A stretch of 64,000 nucleotides of DNA. Source: an uncultured Desulfobacteraceae bacterium (GTDB lineage Bacteria; Desulfobacterota; Syntrophobacteria; BM002). Location: assembly GCA_964346905.1 (NCBI GenBank), contig CAYFXH010000001.1, forward strand, positions 1,280 to 65,279, in the 5' to 3' direction. Below the pieces are notes generated by a model. That model was not told the DNA's origin and ran no database searches. It saw only the letters and a program-made list of their open reading frames with translations. The position numbers and the translations under genes are program-made. Position 1 is the stretch's first letter, and each line of letters opens with the position of its first letter. Positions 35,936 to 47,698 of this stretch are shown one piece after another.

Positions 35936-37042
35936 ATGGAAGACGAACTGAGACAAGTTTTAAGTTACTATGACCTGGGTGAACCCAGAAGCATTCAACG
36001 GGTCGAGTGTGGCTTTGTCAACGACAACTGGGTGCTTGAAACAACCCGTGGACAATACTTTTTGAAGCGCCGCCATACTGACTTGCGAAATCCAGAAGTT
36101 ATCTGCTTCCAGCATGACCTCATGCAGCATCTCAGGCAGGCGGAATTCCCGGCTCCAGCCATTCTGCCCACCATAAGCGGAGAAACTTTTTTGGTGCATG
36201 CTGGCGAGTTCTACGAGATTCAGGAGTATATCAACGGGGCACCATGCGAACACTTTTCTCCACCGCATATACACGTAGCCGCTCTGATGCTTGGCCACTA
36301 CCATGCTTGCGTTCGGGACTTCGTCCCCAGACCCCTGTGTGATTTTGGGGATCTCTACAGTCCTGCTATCCTCATAAACAACCTGACCAGACTATCGGAG
36401 GCTTGGGCCCTCCATCGGGACCCTACCCTGAGGCAAATTGTCCATCAGTTGGAGACCCAGGCGGAAGAACTAGCGGCTCTTTTCACCGAGCATGGAGAGC
36501 TCCCCCATCTGGTAATCCACGGTGACTATCACGCGGGCAACCTTCTGTTCCAAGGTGACCGTATCATTGGAGTGGTCGACTATGACAAGTCTTGCTACCA
36601 GCCTCGGGTTGTAGAGTTGGCCGAAGCCTTGATTTACTTTGCCTCGACCCGGCCAGGTCATCTAAAGCACCTGGTGTATCTCGGTTTTCTTGAGTGGGGT
36701 ACGTTCATGACATTCATGTACCATTATGGTTGTGGACTCAGCTCCTTTGCCAAGGAACCTGTCCAGTACGACCACCGTCCGGAGGCAGATCGGCCCAGCG
36801 ATCTAGCCTGTCAGGCTGGGGACGTTTTTCTCAAGGCAAACGAAGTGTACGCCCTGCCGGACTACATCCGTTGCATCTGGCTTTCGGTCTCGCTCCAACG
36901 GCTGTTGGAAAAAACCTCCCGCTCACCAGTAGCTCTGGAAGCCCTGCGAGAGGTACTGGCACTGGGGCAATGGGCCGCCACCAATAGGGAACGGATTATC
37001 CACTCCGCGCTAGAAAAAATATCTGACGTGGCAGAGCGTTAG
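35936..37042 (+). CDS. Phosphotransferase-family (APH/choline-kinase-like) protein
   Basis: Start Met34 of ORF 35837..37042, 8 nt after the PAS stop. Brenner motif VIHGDYHAGNLLF and DYD catalytic/metal motif. Confidence 0.7.
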   Translation: MEDELRQVLSYYDLGEPRSIQRVECGFVNDNWVLETTRGQYFLKRRHTDLRNPEVICFQHDLMQHLRQAEFPAPAILPTISGETFLVHAGEFYEIQEYINGAPCEHFSPPHIHVAALMLGHYHACVRDFVPRPLCDFGDLYSPAILINNLTRLSEAWALHRDPTLRQIVHQLETQAEELAALFTEHGELPHLVIHGDYHAGNLLFQGDRIIGVVDYDKSCYQPRVVELAEALIYFASTRPGHLKHLVYLGFLEWGTFMTFMYHYGCGLSSFAKEPVQYDHRPEADRPSDLACQAGDVFLKANEVYALPDYIRCIWLSVSLQRLLEKTSRSPVALEALREVLALGQWAATNRERIIHSALEKISDVAER

Positions 37043-37091
37043 ACAGGCAACGGTTAGGCTGCATCTGCCTGCACCTGTTCAAGGAGTAGCC

Positions 37092-37691
37092 ATGATAAAA
37101 GCTATCATTTTCGATTTCGGCCGGGTCATCTCGACCCAAAAGCCGCCATCCCTCTTCAGCGGCTATGAAAAGGATTTGGGACTCCCCCCCGGAACGCTCA
37201 ACCCTATTATGTTCGCTAGCCGGGCCTGGCAAGATACCTTGATTGGCCACAAGACCATTGAAGAGTTCTGGGACGAAATTGGGCCCAAGCTTGGACTGAA
37301 TACTCCCGAGGAAATTGAGGAGTTCCGCCGTCGGTACCGGGCTGATGAAGCGGTTAACGAGGGTGTGCTGAATCTACTCCATCGGCTGCACGGCCATTAC
37401 AAGCTGGCGGTACTCTCCAATGCACCGCCTGGCCTGGGCCAATGGCTGGGCGACTGGGGGATGCTCCATCTGTTCGATGTGCTGTTCTGCTCCGGAGACG
37501 AAGGCGTGGTAAAGCCAGAGCCGGCTGCTTTTACTATCACCCTAGAACGACTCGGCGTGGAGCCCAATGAAGCAGTGTTCATTGACGATACACTGGAACA
37601 CGTGGAGGCAGCCAGGACACTGGGGCTGCACGGAATACTGTTCACCACCGCAGAAGCTCTGGAGGCGGAATTAGATGGCTTACTTGCTTGA
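37092..37691 (+). CDS. HAD-superfamily hydrolase (subfamily IA)
   Basis: 199 aa; motif I IKAIIFDFGRV (DxD-type), SNAPP motif II, GDE...D motif IV region. Confidence 0.75.
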   Translation: MIKAIIFDFGRVISTQKPPSLFSGYEKDLGLPPGTLNPIMFASRAWQDTLIGHKTIEEFWDEIGPKLGLNTPEEIEEFRRRYRADEAVNEGVLNLLHRLHGHYKLAVLSNAPPGLGQWLGDWGMLHLFDVLFCSGDEGVVKPEPAAFTITLERLGVEPNEAVFIDDTLEHVEAARTLGLHGILFTTAEALEAELDGLLA

Positions 37692-37712
37692 AGACCAGAT
37701 GAGGGAGGAAAG

Positions 37713-38363
37713 ATGGCGACCGTTGTGAGCAATGACCACATTAAAATTGATCGGTTAGAATTGGGGCCGTTCGGCACTAATGGGTACATCTTAACCTGCC
37801 AAAAGACACAAGAGAGTGTGGTGATTGACGCCCCCGGCCAAGTCGACAGAGTCCTGGAAGCGCTGGAGGATACACACCCCCAATACATCCTAATTACTCA
37901 TGACCATTTTGATCATGTGGGTGGTCTTTCCCGGTTGAAATCAGCCTTGAACGTTCCCGTCGCTGCCCACCCTGCAGATGGTGACGGGCTTCCCCTACCT
38001 GCGGATATTCTCCTACATGACGGTGAGGTACTATCCTTTGGAGCCAGAGAGCTTACGGTGTTGCACACACCGGGCCACACTCTGGGAAGCATATGCTTGC
38101 TGACCGGGAATTACTTGATTGCGGGGGATACGTTATTTCCGGGAGGTCCGGGTAAAACCCAATCACCCGCAGACTTCCGGCAGATTATTGAATCCATAAC
38201 CCAGAAGATTTTCACATTGCCGGACAACACCCACGTGTATCCCGGACACGGGGAAGCAACAACGGTCAAGGAGGCAAAAAAACAGTACGAGGTTTTCTCA
38301 ACCCGACCGCACGATCCGGATCTTTGCGGGGATGTGGTTTGGGATAAATCGCAGAGCGCATAG
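37713..38363 (+). CDS. MBL-fold metallo-hydrolase
   Basis: 216 aa; ITHDHFDHVGG (HxHxDH) and downstream His/Asp ligands. Confidence 0.8.
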   Translation: MATVVSNDHIKIDRLELGPFGTNGYILTCQKTQESVVIDAPGQVDRVLEALEDTHPQYILITHDHFDHVGGLSRLKSALNVPVAAHPADGDGLPLPADILLHDGEVLSFGARELTVLHTPGHTLGSICLLTGNYLIAGDTLFPGGPGKTQSPADFRQIIESITQKIFTLPDNTHVYPGHGEATTVKEAKKQYEVFSTRPHDPDLCGDVVWDKSQSA

Positions 38364-38498
38364 CGCAGAGCGTATATTCAAAAACTGCAAAGTTATTTTA
38401 AATATCGCAAACAAATGCTAGTCGTTGAATTTACCAGAATGATTTTAGTCTAGCCGTTTTTCTAAACGCTATGCGCTTTGCGCTCTGCGCTATGCGAG
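38350..38498. repeat. Inverted heptamer repeat (cgcagagcgcatagcgcagagcg ... cgctatgcgctttgcgctctgcgctatgcg) bracketing the convergent gene ends
   Basis: Arms at 38350-38373 and 38467-38498 are near-perfect reverse complements; candidate bidirectional terminator/REP element. Confidence 0.5.
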
Positions 38499-38499
38499 C

Positions 38500-39195
38500 T
38501 TACCAACCTATTACCACTCGGTGAAAACCTTCCGCCAGTTCAAAATCCTCCCCTTCAGCCATCTCCCTGCACCGCTCTCTCAGCCAATCTTCAGGGTCCG
38601 GATTGGGGAATCCCTGTACCTGGCTCTGGTGGCAACGTAGGGCCGCAATTTTAAGATCAAAGGTATCGGTGATGTCCGAGCGATAGTTAATGTCTTCCGC
38701 CGCCCAGAATAAGATCTCATCTACATTGTGAGGCTCCAAACCTTCCTCTAACAAATCAGGGTAGGCAAGATGATCCCGAGAGTACGGGAAAACTGCATCG
38801 AGAGTAACCTGCCCGGCAATGCGATGGTCGCGATGCCAGAGGTAACGACGGTAGGGATCCGAGGTCACCACGATCCTGGGCTGGTACATGCGTATAAAGC
38901 GAACGATCTGCTTACGAAATTCCGGCGTGTCTTCCAACTCCTGATCCGGGTATCCCAGGAATATTACTTCTCGGACCCCAAGGATCTTGGCCGCAGCCTG
39001 TTGCTCCTTTTTTCTGATTTCGGCCAATTGTTCAGGTTTGAGGCTCCGGTCGCTGGTTCCCTTGTCGCCATTGGTGCAGACAACGTAGACAACCTGCTTT
39101 CCTTCTCTGGTCCAGCGCGCTACTGTTCCTGCCACCCCGAATTCGGCGTCATCCGGATGAGCTGTTACCACCAGTACGTCCGTTGCTTTCGTCAC
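38500..39195 (-). CDS. PIG-L/LmbE-family N-acetylglucosaminyl deacetylase (MshB/BshB-like)
   Basis: Start chosen at GTG (Val71 of ORF 38500..39405) with AGGAGG RBS 6 nt upstream, giving 232 aa; signature VLVVTAHPDDAEFGVAGT and downstream His/Asp. Confidence 0.75.
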   Translation of the reverse strand: MTKATDVLVVTAHPDDAEFGVAGTVARWTREGKQVVYVVCTNGDKGTSDRSLKPEQLAEIRKKEQQAAAKILGVREVIFLGYPDQELEDTPEFRKQIVRFIRMYQPRIVVTSDPYRRYLWHRDHRIAGQVTLDAVFPYSRDHLAYPDLLEEGLEPHNVDEILFWAAEDINYRSDITDTFDLKIAALRCHQSQVQGFPNPDPEDWLRERCREMAEGEDFELAEGFHRVVIGW

Positions 39196-39250
39196 AACGA
39201 ACCTCCTAAAAAGTCGAGACTCGAGTAGTTCAATGAAATACCGAATGATG

Positions 39251-40459
39251 TTACCTGAGTATGGCTGTGTATTCTTCCAGCATAGCGGACGCCACATTTG
39301 CCCAGCTAAATTGGAGGACCGACGCGCGAATTGCTTCAGCGGATAGTCCGTTGGAGTTCGAGATAAAAGCTTCGATACCGTTTGCCAGTAAACGGGGAGA
39401 ACCATTGGTCACCAGATGTCCTGTCTCACCTTGGCGGAGGATGCTCTCCATAGCCCCCACCTTCGTTGCCACCACCGGTGTGCCAGAGGCGAGCGATTCC
39501 AAGGCCACCAGCCCAAAGCTCTCGTAGTAAGAGGGCACAACCAAGACATCTGCGGCATTGTAGTACGGCGGCAGGTTATCCTGTTCGATCCTTCCCACAA
39601 AGGTCACGGAATCCTGAATACCCAACTTCCAGGATAATCTTTGGAGGTTTTGCGACTCCGGTGTATGATGGCCATCGCCACCGACAATTACCAGTCGAAG
39701 CCTTTGATGATTCAGAAGGCGGGCCACGGCCTCAAGCAATCGGTCTATTCCCTTCAATGGCGCAAATCTGCCCACGAACAACACAATCGACTCATCCTCC
39801 GCAAAACCCAACTGCTCTCGCGCCCTCGCTTTGTCCCATGGGCGGAAAAGATCCAGGTTGACACCACACGGTACAACGCCAATTGTCGCAGAGGACGCCC
39901 CATAGTGTTGCATTAGATGGTCTCTTTCTCTGTGGGTGGCGACGAGAATGCGGTTACAATTATGTGCCAAATGCTGTTCGGTGGCTGTACGCAGTTCGGG
40001 TTCTTTCTCCGCACCAACTGTACTGTTCTTTACCGCGCCAACAGTATGGAACATGAAAAGATGAGGGACTTCCCAGCGTTCATGGGCCCATTTCCCCACC
40101 CGACCGGAGAGCCAGTAGTTACTATGTACAAGGTCATAGTCCAACGACTCGTATGTTCTAAATCTTTCCAGCTCCCGGAAAAAATCAGGCAGATAGGGAT
40201 AAAGTGCCAATTTGTTCATATCACCGTTGTTCCCGGCTTTTAGATGAATGAGTCGGACGTTCTCACATAGTTCAACTCTCTGAGTATCAGCTGCATTACT
40301 GAGACGCGTATAAATGTCGACCAAATGGCCGCGGTTTCCCAGCTCCCGGGCAAGCTCACGGACATAGACACTCATGCCTCCGGTGTCTTTTGTCCCTAAT
40401 TCTCCTAGCGGACTTGAATGAACGCTCAACATTGCAATTCTTAACTGTTCTGCTTCCAC
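39251..40459 (-). CDS. GT4 glycosyltransferase of the MshA/BshA (N-acetylglucosaminyl-transferase) family
   Basis: 402 aa; IAMLSVHSSPLGELGTKDTGGMSVYV, DLVHSNYWLSG, HTVGAVKNS, PSYYESFGLVALESLASGTPVVA align block-for-block with Corynebacterium MshA (from memory). Confidence 0.75.
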   Translation of the reverse strand: MEAEQLRIAMLSVHSSPLGELGTKDTGGMSVYVRELARELGNRGHLVDIYTRLSNAADTQRVELCENVRLIHLKAGNNGDMNKLALYPYLPDFFRELERFRTYESLDYDLVHSNYWLSGRVGKWAHERWEVPHLFMFHTVGAVKNSTVGAEKEPELRTATEQHLAHNCNRILVATHRERDHLMQHYGASSATIGVVPCGVNLDLFRPWDKARAREQLGFAEDESIVLFVGRFAPLKGIDRLLEAVARLLNHQRLRLVIVGGDGHHTPESQNLQRLSWKLGIQDSVTFVGRIEQDNLPPYYNAADVLVVPSYYESFGLVALESLASGTPVVATKVGAMESILRQGETGHLVTNGSPRLLANGIEAFISNSNGLSAEAIRASVLQFSWANVASAMLEEYTAILR

Positions 40460-40503
40460 GTGCGCTACCTCTCGATTCAGTGCTTGTTTACCGTTCAGAT
40501 TGT

Positions 40504-41481
40504 TCAGAGTTTAATCTGGCATCTATACAAGGTAACAGGTTTACCTCCCAACCGATGTTTGTAATCCTCTGCGCCTTTGAGAAAATCGTACCTCTCTTTT
40601 CCTCTCTGAATGCTTTCTTGAATGGTGAATACCTTACTGAGCAGACCCACGTTCAGCGAACTGAATCTGCCGTCATACCCATTGTTGTAAAGATATATCG
40701 TCGAATTATAATCAAAACACATCACCGCGGCTGCAGGTGTCCCGTCAAGTTCGAGGATAAACAGTTGCAATAGCTTGAGCGTTGCCATTGTCTCGGCCAG
40801 TGACCGAAAAAAAGAAGCCATCTGACTAGTCATAAAAGCTGCCTTATCGGCTCGACTCAATCCAAACAGCGCCAAAAAGGTGTCCATTTCCTCCAGGACT
40901 TCTCTTACATCCTCCACAACCCGATATCTGATGTCTGCAGCCTCATCTAATCTCCTGAGTTTTCGTCTCACTTCGTGCCGCTGTTTTCCGGTCAACATGT
41001 GCAAGAATTCATCCCAGCTTGCCGGCAACTCTAACTCCAGGGTAACATCCTCGGGATCGCAAAAAACCTCGCACTCCAGCGCTTTGGCCACGTTGACAAA
41101 ATCGGTGAGCACTTTAGAGTCGGCACGTACGGAGTTCAGATCCAGGTGAGTGATACCCTGCTCCCTTAAATGATTGATGAGAATCTCAGAAAACTCCCCT
41201 ACCCTCCCAGGGGTGACGATGAAATCTTGGTAATCGCAAACATCAGGATCGCCCATGAAGCGGGCCTCTCTTCCTTCCAGCAAAAACGGCGCGATACCGA
41301 TCACTTCTTCCCCGTCTTTCACCGCGTAGAGGGAGGGAGCCAATTCAGCACTGAATACGTTCCACCATACCTCCAGCCAGCCGGGCAAAACAAAGAGACA
41401 ATCCCACTCCAGGACATATCCCGGATCTAGCCAGTAAGAGGCGAGATTTTCAAAGGTCTCTTCAGTTACGGTATATGCCAT
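40504..41481 (-). CDS. FemAB/CelD-like tandem-GNAT acyltransferase (Acetyltransf_6-like)
   Basis: Start Met27 of ORF 40504..41559 (GAAGGTGA RBS). ~326 aa with two GNAT-like halves; architecture typical of aminoacyl-tRNA-dependent transferases (FemX/FemAB) and CelD; no precise motif verified. Confidence 0.5.
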   Translation of the reverse strand: MAYTVTEETFENLASYWLDPGYVLEWDCLFVLPGWLEVWWNVFSAELAPSLYAVKDGEEVIGIAPFLLEGREARFMGDPDVCDYQDFIVTPGRVGEFSEILINHLREQGITHLDLNSVRADSKVLTDFVNVAKALECEVFCDPEDVTLELELPASWDEFLHMLTGKQRHEVRRKLRRLDEAADIRYRVVEDVREVLEEMDTFLALFGLSRADKAAFMTSQMASFFRSLAETMATLKLLQLFILELDGTPAAAVMCFDYNSTIYLYNNGYDGRFSSLNVGLLSKVFTIQESIQRGKERYDFLKGAEDYKHRLGGKPVTLYRCQIKL

Positions 41482-41574
41482 GGTCACCTTCGGAGTATTG
41501 GTACTGTAACGATTGCGGATTGCGGAATTTGGTGATTTCCCTGCTTTGCAATCCTTCATGCTGAAATCTGTAAT

Positions 41575-42006
41575 CTACAAGCTGACCTTGCCGCCGCTTC
41601 TAAAATCTCCACCACCCGTACCAAGTCTTCCAAGGGAGCTGCTATTGGCTCTCCCGTCAACAAATGATCGGCTAGGTTCCGATGAAAAAGATAATGCTCT
41701 CGTTTGGGCAATGCCAGTTTTTGGGTGATAAGTAGTACCTACTGGGATCGCATCATGGGAATGCCAGTAGCCACAGGGGTGCGCAAAACTGCCCACGAAG
41801 GTCTCCATGTAAAAGAGGTCGCCAATCAGCCCATGAGCGAGTGCTTGTTTAATCGCCAAGTAGTCCACGTCCCACCGCCGGTTTTGGTGGCAGCTCAGAT
41901 GCACCCGCTGTTTTTTGGCCATCTCCACCATGGCGGCTGTTTCCTTTTGGCTCAATGCCAGGGGCTTTTCACAGACCACATGCTTCCCTGCTGCCATCAT
42001 TTGCAA
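41575..42006 (-). pseudogene. Gfo/Idh/MocA-family oxidoreductase remnant (N-terminal Rossmann region and C-terminal domain missing)
   Basis: ORF begins at AAGKHVVCEKPLAL, the motif that normally lies ~90 aa into Gfo/Idh/MocA proteins. Only 75 nt separate it from the upstream gene. C-terminal 40 aa are low-complexity, suggesting frameshift. Confidence 0.5.
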
Positions 42007-42080
42007 AGATAAGTTTGCATGGGAGTTCGGTGGGGTGGCTAATCATTTTCCTTTAACCCTCACAGTTCCTGGTTTCTTGC

Positions 42081-43334
42081 CTATGACTTCAGTCGCCACT
42101 GCGCGCCATCTCCAGTATCCTCAACTATTATGTCTGCTCGCTGGAGGCTGTCGCGGATGACGTCGGCTTCTTGCCATTGTTTCTTTTGTCGGAACTCCTG
42201 GCGCAACTTGAGTAGCTCTTCCACGAGAGGGGCAAGACAATCAGCCCTATTTTTTGGAGAAGCCTCAAGTCTCATTCCTAAAATGACTATCAAATCTCGA
42301 AAAATTTCTTTAGCTTGGGAAATGAATTCCTCGTTTTCATGATCCTGCTTGGCTCTCCAGATAACCCGATCAAGCTCCAAAAGAGCGTTGGTGGCTTCTT
42401 TCGGTTCGTCTTTTTCGAGGCCGAGCCGAAAGGTGTTTTCGATTGCATGAATGGTATCCCAGAAGGACTCTGCATCAACATCAGAGGTAGGTTTGAAAAT
42501 CGCTTGCTTTGGGGTTGTCGGTTTCCACTCCTTACCCATCTCTCCTCCACGGAGAACATCAAGAGAAAAACGGTCACCCTTTTCAAAGACCAACTCAGCT
42601 CCCCGACAACGTAGGGTCGCAGTGCCGAGTCCCTTAATGAGAGCTTCTTCTTTTTCAAAATCAATGAGGCAGGCCGTATGTTCATCCAAGCCAAAAATGG
42701 ATACATCCTTGGGCAAGAGGGACTCGAGCTTGCGAAAGCGCGATTCACCCATGAAACAGAAACGGGTGTCGTGAGTCCCACCTTCAGCGTTGTTCCAATG
42801 GGGAATCACCACCAGATTGAAGCCGAAGTGGTGGAGTATATTCATCCCCTCCACCCAATGCAGGTCTTCGCCCACCTTGTAAATCTCATAGACTGGGAGA
42901 GTGAAGCGTCCCAGGGTCAGGGCGGCAGCACTGGCAGCCACTAGGCAACCGCCGGATTCGATCTGCTTTATCAAGATTTCAGGTACGGGTGTTTGCTGCC
43001 ACTGGCGAAGGGCATACGTCGGACTTCCTGGGCCAATCAGAATAAAGTCGGCCTCCCGCAGCGTATGAAAGGCCTGCTCGGCTTCGTATGGTGTGATCCT
43101 CTCGTTTGACTGAAACGAGGCTGTTGACATGGGTTGTTGAACATGGATACGAAAATAATCCAAGGCTCTCTTGGATATCTGATCAACATTAAGCTGAAAG
43201 CCAGCCGGCGTATCGAGAAATACGGCTCGGGGATCTTGAGCAAATCCCGCCAGTAACTCCTTGTGAACTTCAACCATGGTTGCAGTGAGTTCACCTGAGC
43301 CCATGAGGGCGATAATTCCTTTCCTTGATGACAC
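42081..43334 (-). CDS. Fusion protein: peptidase S51/cyanophycinase-like (class I GATase-like) N-terminal domain + C-terminal tRNA-anticodon-binding region of cysteinyl-tRNA synthetase
   Basis: 417 aa. N-terminal IALMGSGE...FLDTPAGF...ILIGPGSPTYALR...GGCLVAASAAALTLG resembles the S51 fold. C-terminal ...LRQEFRQKKQWQEADVIRDSLQRADIIVEDTGDGAQWRLKS aligns with E. coli CysRS C-terminus ...[39 protein letters not shown] (from memory). No HIGH or KMSKS motifs present. Confidence 0.6.
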   Translation of the reverse strand: MSSRKGIIALMGSGELTATMVEVHKELLAGFAQDPRAVFLDTPAGFQLNVDQISKRALDYFRIHVQQPMSTASFQSNERITPYEAEQAFHTLREADFILIGPGSPTYALRQWQQTPVPEILIKQIESGGCLVAASAAALTLGRFTLPVYEIYKVGEDLHWVEGMNILHHFGFNLVVIPHWNNAEGGTHDTRFCFMGESRFRKLESLLPKDVSIFGLDEHTACLIDFEKEEALIKGLGTATLRCRGAELVFEKGDRFSLDVLRGGEMGKEWKPTTPKQAIFKPTSDVDAESFWDTIHAIENTFRLGLEKDEPKEATNALLELDRVIWRAKQDHENEEFISQAKEIFRDLIVILGMRLEASPKNRADCLAPLVEELLKLRQEFRQKKQWQEADVIRDSLQRADIIVEDTGDGAQWRLKS

Positions 43335-43749
43335 GCCGAACTTCTTTCCAGTGAGCCACAGAGGCCACTGATCATTGGATTGAGTTCAGAGACTGCTGAG
43401 CTACCGTCTCCATTGATAATCAAAACCGACACCCAACTGGATAAGATAAGCCACTTTTGTTAACTAGTAAAGGTCACACCATGTTCTTTGCTGAAGAGAG
43501 AGCTTCACTTTGCGCATTGGACGGGATGCTTCCATGTTTAGTAGTCTCTGCCAAGATCTATCCCAGACGGCAATCGCTGGGGGTACAGAGGACGTCTTGA
43601 TCACACACGAAGAGCTCGGCAGGTAAGATGAGACCCGTGCAACGTGTTTCCGGTTGGCACACCCCTTGCTTCTGTATATGTATTGCAATCTGTGGCAACC
43701 AGTAGTCTGCACCATTCACTGGTCTACTTTGGTGAAGCGAGAACGAGAA

Positions 43750-43980
43750 ATGACGTACATTTGCATAAAATGTAGAAAAACCTGGGTCAGTGGAACTCAT
43801 ACTGATCAGTATTCCGGGGGATTGTGCCAAGCGTGCACTACGGAGTACATTAGAGAGAGGCAAAAAAGCCACGGGTTTCATGATTGCTTCAAACGGGCAG
43901 TTGAAGTCTGTTCAAGAGACGAATGCAGTTACTGGCTCTTGTGCAACAGAGATCTTATGGAGAAGAGGGGATGTGCGTGA
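43750..43980 (+). CDS. Small Cys-rich (9 Cys / 76 aa) putative zinc-ribbon protein
   Basis: Internal Met of ORF 43654..43980; CIKC...CQAC...HDC...C...DEC pattern; weak RBS, so uncertain. Confidence 0.25.
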   Translation: MTYICIKCRKTWVSGTHTDQYSGGLCQACTTEYIRERQKSHGFHDCFKRAVEVCSRDECSYWLLCNRDLMEKRGCA

Positions 43981-44107
43981 ACCTGTGACTTTCTACTCAA
44001 CCTCTAAATCGGTCTCTTGGTACCGGTAACGTTAAGGGGCAAAACATACGGCAAGAGGGACAGCCATGAAGGTATACCTGATCAATGGTATATGTTCATG
44101 ACCGTCC

Positions 44108-45208
44108 CTACTTCGAGGCCAGCATGTAACCTTTCCGGGCCATGTGGCTGGTTAGCAGACCGTCTAGACCGTTGTAAAACACCAGGAGAATGAGGGCAAC
44201 GATAAGACTCTCCTGCTCTCCGCTCAAAAACGCCAATATCACCACCGCCCAAATCACCATCGAGCCCAATAATTCCAGACTGCCTAACAACGTGTGACCG
44301 AGATACATGTCTCTCAATCCGGGCAATAACAAAGATCTCAAAAAAGCTGTCTTTGGGTTTTTAAACTCTGCCTGGCATTTTGGGCATGCAAGCAAGTTTT
44401 TCGCAAGCGGCACGTAACAGGAGGGACAGAGGTCTTCAACCGCAGCTTCCGCTGTCTTTGCGGCCTTGAAAAGACGCTGCCTTTCCCGAACAAATTGTTG
44501 AAAATCTTTCGCCATGTACCGCTTCATCCCGGTAAAGATACGACGTTTGCCTTTCTGCCGGTGGAGTACGAGACTCGTGCCGAACAGACCCGTCCCAACT
44601 TTGCTGATGGTCTCATAGGGTATCTGGAAAAAGTAGTGGGTCGGCTTTGAAATTTTTTGATTTACATTGATGAACAGGAGTCTCTGACTGGTGCCCACCA
44701 CTGCATAGTGATTGTACAGCGTCGTCAAGTAGCCGTTTCCAAAAATAATCTCTGATGGGTAATAGGCCGTTGCTTTACCAATTCGCATGGCTTGCTCATC
44801 GCTTAGTAGCATTTTATCCAGCGTTCCATGCACCGCCTTAAGAATTTTGACCTTAAACGTGTTTCTTCTGGTCTTATAGGCTCCTTTTTTACTGGGGGTA
44901 ATCATTCCATCAAGCTTCAGTTTTTCAGAGGTCAGATTCTGCAACTCCGGGTATTCAGTGATGAGAGTTAATTCAGACTCAGACCGATCTCTTTCCTGGG
45001 GAATTTGGTAGTTTGCATCATTGGACGGAGGTGTTACAGCAGCAAAGTCGGACACCATCTGGGCATCCAGAATCATGTCTTGCTCCCCATGCGGCTCAAC
45101 GAGAAATTTTCCTCCACATCTTTTGCAACTGGCTTGAACGGGCTTTTCCGGGATTTTGTCGCTTGCAACCTTGTACTGAGTGTTACAGATGGGACAAACA
45201 ATCTGCAT
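44108..45208 (-). CDS. Membrane protein with N-terminal MJ0042-type zinc ribbon, central bacterial PH-like domain, second CxxC...CxxC pair and C-terminal TM helices
   Basis: MQIVCPICNTQYKV...CKRCGGKF; later CPSCYVPLAKNLLACPKCQAEF; hydrophobic C-terminus. Confidence 0.5.
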   Translation of the reverse strand: MQIVCPICNTQYKVASDKIPEKPVQASCKRCGGKFLVEPHGEQDMILDAQMVSDFAAVTPPSNDANYQIPQERDRSESELTLITEYPELQNLTSEKLKLDGMITPSKKGAYKTRRNTFKVKILKAVHGTLDKMLLSDEQAMRIGKATAYYPSEIIFGNGYLTTLYNHYAVVGTSQRLLFINVNQKISKPTHYFFQIPYETISKVGTGLFGTSLVLHRQKGKRRIFTGMKRYMAKDFQQFVRERQRLFKAAKTAEAAVEDLCPSCYVPLAKNLLACPKCQAEFKNPKTAFLRSLLLPGLRDMYLGHTLLGSLELLGSMVIWAVVILAFLSGEQESLIVALILLVFYNGLDGLLTSHMARKGYMLASK

Positions 45209-45478
45209 GGCGCCCCCCTTGGGTTTGAATTGTTATGAATCTCTTCTGTTCCTGGTTGCCAGGGCTACTAGGTGAGTTGGCCCATGACCCCGTGGTAATG
45301 CAAACCGCATGCCGACCTCCCTCAATGCATGATCTTTTGGATGGTCCGAAGACCTAGAAGTCCATGGCTTTACCAGGCAGGATGCACCAGCTATTCCCCC
45401 CTCTACGATGACCTGGTTTGCAAATGTGCTGGTCTGCTTTATTATTAAAGATACTCGAGAAGACAGGTACAATTGACA

Positions 45479-46522
45479 ATGTCGAAATTTCCTCTCGTAA
45501 TAGCTTTTTTAGCCGCGGTTTTGTTTGGCGGAGCAACACCCGCAAGTAAGGTATTGTTGCGGGCTTTGCCAACATTTCAGCTTGCAGGGCTCCTCTACCT
45601 CGGCGCTGCCCTCGGCGTCCTACCCCTGATCGCCCATGAGGGGACGTTTTCGTGGCCTTGGAGTCTTGACCGCAAAACCGGTCTCCGACTTGTTGGAGCA
45701 ATCAGCTTTGGGGGTGTGGTGGGCCCGGTGTTCTTACTTTTCGGCCTGCGGCTCGCCTCGGCTGCTTCGGTATCTTTGTGGCTCAATTTGGAACTCATTG
45801 CCACTGTACTTCTCGGCTATCTCGTTTTTCGCGACCAGCTAACCGCATACGGATGGGTTGCCGCCATAGGAACGCTTGCAGCAGCGACGCTATTGTCCGC
45901 ATCCGAGGGATTGGCCGGGGTGAAGGCTGGTCTGCTCGTCACCCTGGCCTGTTTTTGCTGGGGCTTGGATAATCACCTCACCGCCCTGATCACCGGTATC
46001 ACTCCGGCACAGACCACCTTTTGGAAGGGCTTGGTTGCGGGTATGGTGAACCTCGCCATTGGAACAAGATTGGACCCCTACACTGCGACAATCTCTTTGA
46101 CAGCCGCGGCCATCGCCGTCGGTATTCTTTCCTATGGAATAAGTATCGTGCTCTATATCACTTCGGCACAAAAGCTGGGTGCCACGAGAAGTCAAATCAT
46201 TTTTTCCAGTTCGCCATTTTTGGGGGTCATCCTGGCTGCAATTTTCCTGAGAGAAACCATTTCTGTGGCTCAAATAGTGGCCTCACTGGTTATCATTACT
46301 TCCCTTGCGTTTCTGTTCTTCGAGCAACATGCGCACGTGCATCATCATGACGCCACGGCACACGAGCATTGGCATCGCCATGACGACGGCCATCACGACC
46401 ACGTATTCCCAGGAATGCCTCGGGCTATATATCACAGTCACTGGCACGAGCATAAAGCCATGACCCATAAGCATGCTCACCGGCCCGATCCATATCACCG
46501 GCATAAACACGGGGAAGACTAA
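45479..46522 (+). CDS. EamA/DMT-superfamily transporter with His-rich C-terminal tail
   Basis: 10 TM-like segments, then HAHVHHHDATAHEHWHRHDDGHHDH...HSHWHEHKAMTHKHAHRPDPYHRHKHGED; ORF-track frame begins at TTG 45473. Confidence 0.65.
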   Translation: MSKFPLVIAFLAAVLFGGATPASKVLLRALPTFQLAGLLYLGAALGVLPLIAHEGTFSWPWSLDRKTGLRLVGAISFGGVVGPVFLLFGLRLASAASVSLWLNLELIATVLLGYLVFRDQLTAYGWVAAIGTLAAATLLSASEGLAGVKAGLLVTLACFCWGLDNHLTALITGITPAQTTFWKGLVAGMVNLAIGTRLDPYTATISLTAAAIAVGILSYGISIVLYITSAQKLGATRSQIIFSSSPFLGVILAAIFLRETISVAQIVASLVIITSLAFLFFEQHAHVHHHDATAHEHWHRHDDGHHDHVFPGMPRAIYHSHWHEHKAMTHKHAHRPDPYHRHKHGED

Positions 46523-46540
46523 CGAAGGCAAACAGCAGGG

Positions 46541-46576
46541 TTCAGATTGCAGATTTTAGATTGCAGATTTTAGATC
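46541..46576. repeat. Tandem 14-mer (cagattttagattg x2) 3 direction of the DMT gene / far upstream of the ECF operon
   Basis: Seen directly. Confidence 0.5.
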
Positions 46577-46698
46577 TAGGAACTAAGACCAAGAGTGTGC
46601 CAGTGATAATCACATGTGTGTTTTCAAAAAGGACATGTTGAACGTGCATCGAAAAAAACCACCTCCTAGATATTCACAATCTCAAATCTCAAATGGTC

Positions 46699-46728
46699 TT
46701 GACACCGTGTAGAATGTCGGTAATAATT
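46699..46728 (+). promoter_or_regulatory. Sigma70-like promoter candidate (TTGACA - 17 nt - AATAAT) followed by ~200-nt hairpin-rich leader before the ECF transporter operon
   Basis: Perfect -35 hexamer and A/T-rich -10 seen in sequence; leader contains gggctgaagccc and other hairpins. Confidence 0.3.
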
Positions 46729-46921
46729 TTTCAAAGCGTGGGCTGAAGCCCATATTGTTATCAGAGAAGATATCAGCACTATTGGGCCACGAAGGCTTAT
46801 CTGAACTCAGGAGAGTTAGAAGAGGATAAGCTGATGTGGCTTTTTTGTTGGGCCTGCAGCCCAGGGCGATCGGGTATTCCCCCCTTGGTAAAAGGCCAAC
46901 CGCTTCCAGCATGACGGACAA

Positions 46922-47698
46922 ATGTGGCAGACAGAGATGAAGAAGATGGTTGGGTTGCTTGTGACGGTACTGTGGCTGGTCTTTTTTGCTCACCAGACGG
47001 CAACCGCTCACTTCGGTATGATCATTCCTTCAGATGAGATGGTTATGAGGGGGGAAAGCCCGAATGTCGCCGTGCAGCTCATGTTCTGGCACCCCTTCGA
47101 AGGTCAGGGAATGGAACTGGCGAAGCCCGCACAATTTGGCGTGGTGGCAAACGGCAGCAAGCAGGACTTGTTACATACGCTCAGTTCTAGAAAGATCAAA
47201 GAACATACCACCTGGCAGACTACCTATCGAATCAGGCGGCCCGGACTTTATATTTTTTACATGGAGCCGCAGCCTTACTTGGAGGCTGCGGAAAATTCTT
47301 ACATCATTCATTACACCAAGACCGTAGTTGCAGCTTATGGTAAGGACGAAGGCTGGGATGAACCCATCGGCCTGAAAACCGAAATCGTCCCCCTAAGCAG
47401 ACCTTTTGGCCTTTACGTGACCAATGTGTTTCAAGGGGTGGTTATGCGCAATGGGAAACCCGTGGCCGGTGTCGAGGTGGAAGTCGAGTACTTCAATGTG
47501 ACTGGTACGTATTCCGCCCCTACGGACTACATGGTGACCCAGACCACTAGGACCGACCCGAACGGGGTTTTTACTTACGCGGTCCCCAAGGCTGGCTGGT
47601 GGGGTTTCGCCGCCATCACCACTGATGATCACCAAATCAACGGTAAAGATGTGGAAATTGGCGCTGTGCTATGGGTCAAGTTCCATCTGATGCAATAG
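46922..47698 (+). CDS. DUF4198-family periplasmic component of Ni/Co ECF transporter (NikK-like)
   Basis: 258 aa, signal peptide, adjacent and upstream of cbiM in same orientation; start may be Met6. Confidence 0.55.

Follow-up and report, generated by a model that had tools for sequence, protein, structure and literature searches.

What does a protein do that carries the tRNA-binding end of cysteinyl-tRNA synthetase (CysRS) on a hydrolase fold, without the synthetase core? The question is raised by one gene in a 64,000-nucleotide stretch of contig CAYFXH010000001.1 from an uncultured Desulfobacteraceae bacterium; this whole stretch is termed the window in what follows. The gene product, P0001, is a peptidase S51 protein bearing a CysRS-type anticodon-binding domain, and shows none of the catalytic hallmarks of CysRS or of its paralog MshC. 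Our preferred answer, to which we give a probability of about 0.35, is that P0001 is an aminoacyl-tRNA-using enzyme that moves cysteine from Cys-tRNACys to the amine of a glycoside; we infer the tRNACys binding, the transfer, the acceptor and the product alike. Protein databases list the fusion, whose function appears to be undescribed, and neither the fusion nor its operon was found described in the literature searched.

The P0001 coding sequence (CDS) lies on the minus strand at 42081..43334 and specifies 417 aa. It runs from a GTG start codon at 43334 to a stop codon at 42081-42083, and a purine-rich, Shine-Dalgarno-like GGAAAGAAG sits close 5′ of the start. The AlphaFold2 (AF2) model, made from a 112-sequence alignment (predicted local distance difference test score, pLDDT, 92; predicted template modelling score, pTM, 0.73), has three parts: an alpha/beta S51 domain at residues 1 to ~260 (42555..43334, minus strand), a short flexible linker at residues ~261-290 (42465..42554, minus strand; low AF2 confidence at 277-287), and a helical bundle with a terminal beta hairpin at residues 291-417 (42081..42464, minus strand). 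An earlier note, made by reading the sequence by eye, had proposed the two domains with correct residue counts, and Foldseek bears it out: the N-terminal part is an S51 domain and the C-terminal part is the CysRS helical-bundle and anticodon-binding region.

Sequence and structure alike make the C-terminal domain a homologue of that part of CysRS which contacts the anticodon stem-loop of tRNACys. Pfam CysS_C (PF23493) matches residues 367-414 (E=3.7e-10; 40.2 bits against a gathering threshold of 23), with a weak DALR_2 match at residues 313-356, and the NCBIfam CysRS model TIGR00435 (cysS) covers residues 313-414 only, which are profile positions 362-464 of 466. Searching the PDB with phmmer returns CysRS chains for the same end of the protein: 3tqo (E=1.4e-5, residues 362-414), 8qhp and Escherichia coli 1li5 (residues 313-416). 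In structural comparison of the AF2 model (Foldseek/VIA), residues 292-416 match residues 332-461 of 1u0b_B, E. coli CysRS in complex with tRNACys (Z 8.5, 117 aligned residues, 27% identity), a similarity far above chance; the matched segment is the helical-bundle and anticodon-binding region of CysRS, so that P0001 291-417 corresponds to residues ~332-461 of the E. coli enzyme (1LI5, 1U0B). The likeness noticed by eye in the last ~110 residues is thus confirmed, and the possibility that this segment is an unrelated coiled coil was rejected on the profile and structure matches.

Among the residues conserved within the family are D391, R394, D406 and W413 of the motif that P0001 shares with the synthetase. 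R378, D391 and R394 are invariant in the C-terminal alignment, and R382, L397, D406 and W413 are conserved in ≥90% of sequences. P0001 and CysRS have in common the motif W..AD.IRD.L...G.EV.DT..G..WR at residues 387-414, or, condensed, AD-x-IR...G(I/V)-x-(V/I)-ED...G..WR; in the HMMER alignment the E. coli CysRS counterparts are W432, D436, R439, L442, D451 and W458. The same motif weakly matches proteins of 770-830 aa in many relatives of the window genome (G003, G012, G013, G017 and others), which are probably other class I aminoacyl-tRNA synthetases (aaRSs) with DALR-type anticodon domains.

The N-terminal ~260 residues had been likened to a serine hydrolase of the S51 type, an assignment that structure places on firmer ground than sequence profiles. 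Pfam Peptidase_S51 matches residues 9-225 at 22.8 bits (E=8.4e-5), slightly under its gathering threshold of 23.9, and an NCBIfam search gives a weak match to peptidase E (PepE; PRK05282) at residues 84-243. Against the PDB, phmmer aligns residues 6-220 with the acI-B1 peptidase 6nqc (E=2.4e-5), and Foldseek/VIA on the AF2 model gives Z 27.3 to 6nqc, Z ~24 to cyanophycinase (CphB)/pseudo-CphB and Z 21-22 to the Salmonella and Xenopus peptidases E. The alpha/beta S51 fold of residues 1-260 is accordingly that of Salmonella peptidase E (1FY2/6A4R) and cyanophycinase CphB (3EN0/7UQW), with Z 21-27. These enzymes have a nucleophile serine in a small-x-Ser-x-small elbow together with a His and an acid, and a matching serine with a putative His and acid is conserved in P0001. 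The stretch GGCLVAASAAA (residues 128-138), suggested in the earlier note as a possible nucleophile elbow, holds up as such: in the phmmer alignment the serine of its AASAA (S135; codon 42930..42932, minus strand) aligns with the nucleophile serine in GCSAG of 6nqc, and it is ≥90% conserved in the 112-sequence alignment. The putative catalytic histidine is H179 (codon 42798..42800, minus strand), which is invariant in that alignment and lies in an IPH motif also found in 6nqc. The candidate acid of the triad is E218 (codon 42681..42683, minus strand), with D217 adjacent; both are ≥90% conserved, and their GxDE stretch aligns with GIDEVT of 6nqc, although we infer which residue is the exact acid. 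Since the nucleophile Ser and the putative His and acid are retained, the S51 domain is probably active as an enzyme.

The synthetase core is missing, as had been claimed. Neither the HIGH nor the KMSKS motif is found in the P0001 sequence, and the AF2 model contains no Rossmann catalytic domain. CysRS has all three, so P0001, being without them, cannot make Cys-tRNACys; a normal CysRS with HIGH (as HVGH) and KMSKS is encoded on another contig of the same genome. Two simple origins were rejected. P0001 has no Rossmann core and gives no match to the MshC model (TIGR03447), and so is neither a truncated CysRS nor an MshC paralog; an MshC-derived C-terminal domain was set aside because TIGR03447 does not match. 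Nor is it a fragment or pseudogene of the host CysRS, since it is full length, is kept in ~2,000 clusters at 50% identity and coexists with the intact CysRS elsewhere in the genome.

The fusion is widespread. Among clusters at 50% identity, phmmer finds 1,979 with P0001 homologues at E<=1e-3, of which 460 reach E<=1e-30; the majority are of full length (~400-470 aa) and contain both domains, and the CysRS-type domain is retained in every full-length family member. A word-based search returns at least 8,000 close homologues, the top one at 76% identity, from metagenome-assembled genomes of Desulfobacterota and Syntrophobacterales; the fusion as a whole is found mostly in Desulfobacterota and Nitrospirota. 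Database names for these proteins include ‘peptidase E’, ‘cyanophycinase-like exopeptidase’, ‘type 1 glutamine amidotransferase-like’ and ‘CysS/YqeB C-terminal domain-containing protein’. Because key residues are conserved in both the S51 and the CysS_C parts, both domains appear to be under selection. With the CysRS-derived tail real and the S51 Ser, His and acid conserved, a conventional peptidase E having no link to tRNA therefore fails on the domain side. A relative at 34% identity adjoins a stand-alone S51 protein, and in the relative G036 the gene, though seemingly split, is one continuous open reading frame (ORF).

Gene neighbourhoods were compared at 80 GTDB species loci, using tblastn with the neighbour proteins from the window. 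The P0001 homologue is nearly always gene 1 of a co-directional set. In full, the set continues with GFO_A (557 aa; a ThuA-like N-terminus followed by a GFO/IDH/MocA oxidoreductase), GFO_B (347 aa; GFO/IDH/MocA), a GNAT protein (~340 aa), a family 4 glycosyltransferase (GT4) and a PIG-L deacetylase. The GFO pair is absent from some of the loci, and in a few it is all of the set that accompanies P0001. Genes upstream of P0001 are not conserved, unlike the downstream set. Among 41 relatives of the window genome, P0001 and the GNAT gene co-occur, usually adjacent, in most genomes of the genus and family of the window and also in several others from its class, with a few discordant genomes.

The GNAT gene of the window (40504..41559, minus strand) encodes a FemX-like tandem GNAT (Acetyltransf_6 plus FemAB_like), as assigned by Pfam, NCBIfam, and AF2 with Foldseek. 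Its AF2 model (pLDDT 92, from its own 52-sequence alignment) has as nearest structures Staphylococcus aureus FemA, FemX, Weissella FemXVv (including peptidyl-RNA complexes), the peptide synthase Sbb17 and domains of MprF/A-PGS/L-PGS, with acetyl-CoA tandem GNATs ranking behind FemA/FemX, Sbb17 and MprF. FemA/FemX, Sbb17 and MprF are aminoacyl-tRNA-dependent transferases. The protein also carries a strongly basic motif, GKQRHExRRKLRRL, that is invariant in the 52 sequences. From this fold, as modelled, and the basic motif, it follows that the GNAT partner likely uses aminoacyl-tRNA, and therefore that the operon would already handle such tRNAs. In NCBIfam the GNAT also weakly matches BspF, a type IV secretion system effector crotonyl transferase, and pepcterm_femAB.

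The last two genes of the set resemble early steps of known thiol pathways. For the GT4 (39251..40459, minus strand) the best NCBIfam model is TIGR03449 (mycothiol_MshA), at 366.8 bits, below its cutoff of 462.5, and the best solved homologues are 3c48/3c4q (E≈1e-75), which we take to be MshA of Corynebacterium glutamicum. It also matches the Pfam family ‘GT4-conflict’ (PF20706, E=2.2e-20), whose description refers to conflict systems. The PIG-L (LmbE) deacetylase, 38500..39405 as called on the minus strand and with its true start probably near 39200, has Pfam PIG-L on residues 78-204 and is BshB/MshB-like: its best NCBIfam models are BshB1 (109 bits) and BshB2, then Mca and MshB (58.6 bits). 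An MshA-like GT4 with a BshB/MshB-like PIG-L would therefore provide synthesis and deacetylation of an N-acetylglucosamine (GlcNAc) glycoside, steps known from the pathways to mycothiol and bacillithiol. Later enzymes of those pathways are missing from the genome, where no MshC was found (TIGR03447 recovers only the true CysRS), no MshD (TIGR03448 gives only a weak generic GNAT match) and no BshC; GshA, of glutathione biosynthesis, is missing as well. Three genes for inositol-1-phosphate synthase (Ino1) are present.

We can now set out how P0001 may work. Having no Rossmann or ATP-binding domain, it would be unable to activate an amino acid and would therefore need an activated donor, for example an aminoacyl-tRNA, whose identity is probably specified as tRNACys. 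Peptidase E acts on Asp-X dipeptides by a ping-pong mechanism with a covalent aminoacyl-serine. In the proposed adaptation of this chemistry, the CysRS-derived domain would dock on the tRNACys anticodon while the S51 serine attacks the ester that links cysteine to the 3′ end of the tRNA, giving a Cys-O-Ser135 acyl-enzyme; an amine, in place of water, would then resolve this intermediate, passing cysteine to the acceptor. The acceptor would likely be a glucosamine glycoside, for which the MshA-like GT4 would transfer GlcNAc, perhaps to inositol phosphate, and the BshB/MshB-like deacetylase would free the amine. The FemX-like GNAT may contribute a further step, either tRNA-dependent aminoacylation or acylation; the GFO/IDH/MocA oxidoreductases, where present, may make the acceptor or modify its sugar or inositol. 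The pathway would end in a cysteinyl-glycoside resembling mycothiol, which may be what these anaerobes use as their low-molecular-weight thiol, with tRNA-dependent cysteine ligation standing in for the ATP-dependent MshC step. Both halves of the donor chemistry have counterparts in other enzymes: a serine acyl-enzyme formed from an aminoacyl-tRNA donor is established for cyclodipeptide synthases, and TglB uses Cys-tRNACys as donor in 3-thiaglutamate biosynthesis (PMC12945691).

In fold and proposed chemistry P0001 comes closest to peptidase E, and in its putative tRNA-binding module to CysRS. It is larger than peptidase E (~417 versus ~230 aa), with the additional CysRS-type C-terminal domain and an operon containing a glycosyltransferase, a deacetylase and a FemX-like transferase. 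If the preferred reading is true, P0001 would have the job of MshC, placing cysteine on a glucosamine glycoside, and would do so from a gene cluster with MshA/MshB-like enzymes; the catalytic parts are nevertheless not homologous, MshC being an ATP-dependent Rossmann enzyme as opposed to the aminoacyl-tRNA-fed serine-acyltransferase proposed here. The cyclodipeptide synthases (AlbC, Rv2275) move an aminoacyl group from tRNA onto an active-site serine, by analogy the mechanism proposed for P0001; they differ in having a Rossmann fold akin to the catalytic domains of class I TyrRS/TrpRS (P0001 being S51), in having no anticodon-binding domain and in making cyclodipeptides. The tandem-GNAT fold of FemX/FemABX and Sbb17 is present in the neighbouring GNAT and not in P0001, which is S51 plus helical. 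The GT4 and PIG-L steps of the operon resemble those of the mycothiol (MshA/B/C/D) and bacillithiol (BshA/B/C) pathways; MshC, MshD and BshC are absent here, and P0001 and the GNAT would do the cysteine and acyl steps. The GFO/IDH/MocA pair has no counterpart in either pathway.

The operon of the window is itself not complete. Positions 41577..42045 (minus strand), where gene 2 normally lies, hold a remnant of the ThuA–GFO/IDH/MocA gene GFO_A, in two pieces with in-frame stops that have 77-79% identity to the intact GFO_A of relatives; an ORF of 143 aa there (41575-42006) matches the middle part of GFO/IDH/MocA proteins in NCBIfam. GFO_B is missing. The GNAT, GT4 and PIG-L genes are intact. 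With GFO_A reduced to fragments and GFO_B gone, the operon is therefore decaying in the lineage of the window.

Several points weigh against cysteine transfer by P0001. The loss of the GFO pair means that this genome may have an incomplete or altered pathway. Moreover, P0001 is associated most broadly with the two GFO/IDH/MocA oxidoreductases and not with the GT4/PIG-L/GNAT module: more distant relatives of P0001, at 41% identity, retain orthologs of the GFO pair (at 41% and 32%) and not the GT4 module. The anticodon-binding domain may have come to bind a different tRNA or ligand, and the FemX-like GNAT alone could carry out the tRNA-dependent step, with P0001 doing something else. No enzyme of the S51 fold is known to depend on aminoacyl-tRNA, and a 2026 review of aminoacyl-tRNA-dependent enzymes lists no S51 member among them (PMC12945691).

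If the GNAT alone ligates, P0001 may be an amidase or peptidase that cleaves the aminoacyl–amide of the pathway product, for recycling, detoxification or self-resistance, comparably to Mca, the mycothiol S-conjugate amidase, or to AcmE. We consider this possible, though doubtful. S51 enzymes (peptidase E, cyanophycinase) are known to hydrolyse aminoacyl-amide bonds, the putative catalytic triad appears conserved, a FemX-like GNAT is at hand for the ligation and many sources label the protein ‘peptidase E’. There is also precedent in AcmE/AcmF, which pairs an alpha/beta hydrolase, AcmE being the ascamycin hydrolase, with an aminoacyl-tRNA-dependent transferase (PMC12945691). On this reading the role of CysS_C would be to bind tRNA in a regulatory capacity, or else a different ligand; this leaves without explanation a CysRS-derived domain kept in all full-length members, and a recycling hydrolase has no obvious need to recognize tRNA.

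Alternatively, P0001 may act on tRNACys without transferring cysteine, either as a factor that captures Cys-tRNACys and delivers it to the GNAT, or as a trans-acting deacylase of spent or misacylated tRNACys. The anticodon-binding domain would confer selectivity for tRNACys, a serine hydrolase domain is capable of ester deacylation, and the GNAT partner is likely an aminoacyl-tRNA user. We nonetheless judge such a role to be improbable: a delivery factor of this kind is without precedent, CysRS does not normally need editing, and a plain deacylase brings no obvious gain to a biosynthetic operon. Least probable in our estimation is an ordinary peptidase-E-like dipeptidase whose CysRS-derived domain has lost tRNA binding and serves to stabilize or oligomerize the protein, with a link to the operon that is metabolic rather than tRNA-based. 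The S51 fold, the putative triad and names such as ‘peptidase E’ and ‘cyanophycinase-like exopeptidase’ would suit it, yet the CysRS motif residues are strongly conserved, as expected if the original function is retained, and the gene is linked, consistently in different taxa, to one for a protein of the FemX-like aminoacyl-tRNA-transferase fold. The functional suggestion of the earlier note, that the fusion could recruit or discriminate tRNACys or Cys-tRNACys for a non-ribosomal reaction, or hydrolyse an aminoacyl or peptidyl bond, is accordingly supported in part: the fusion anatomy, the CysRS-derived tail, the conserved catalytic residues and the FemX-like GNAT adjacent in nearly all relatives favour it, with the choice among the reactions being one of probability.

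To our knowledge, the aminoacyl-tRNA-dependent enzymes fall into a small number of folds, namely the GNAT/FemX type, the cyclodipeptide synthases, LanB/PEARL and MprF. Cysteine transfer by P0001, if true, would add a new fold to these, and a new way of drawing a specific aminoacyl-tRNA from translation. It would, in addition, directly exemplify the reuse of an aaRS anticodon domain to give tRNA specificity to an enzyme that is not a synthetase. Many anaerobic sulfate-reducing and syntrophic bacteria are without glutathione, mycothiol and bacillithiol, and a cysteinyl-glycoside thiol as product would fill a gap in the low-molecular-weight thiols of these organisms. The conserved gene set suggests a new tRNA-fed route joining cysteine to a sugar, possibly for a protective thiol in anaerobic bacteria. 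The broader proposal, that P0001 founds a new peptidase-E-fold class of aminoacyl-tRNA-dependent transferases and that anaerobic Desulfobacterota and Nitrospirota thereby build a mycothiol-like thiol not known before, is speculative, and we would not call it likely.

An Rfam scan of window positions 36000-47000 found no RNA element (T-box, riboswitch), and the public sequencing runs checked for P0001 yielded DNA/metagenome contigs only, with no RNA data set carrying it. Upstream of P0001, at 44108-45208 on the minus strand, a gene that is not conserved with the operon encodes a protein of 366 aa that begins with a zinc ribbon (CXXC) of the MJ0042 type. Beyond the PIG-L gene and on the opposite strand is a metallo-beta-lactamase gene (37713-38363, plus strand), which is kept beside the operon in ~14 of the 80 loci.

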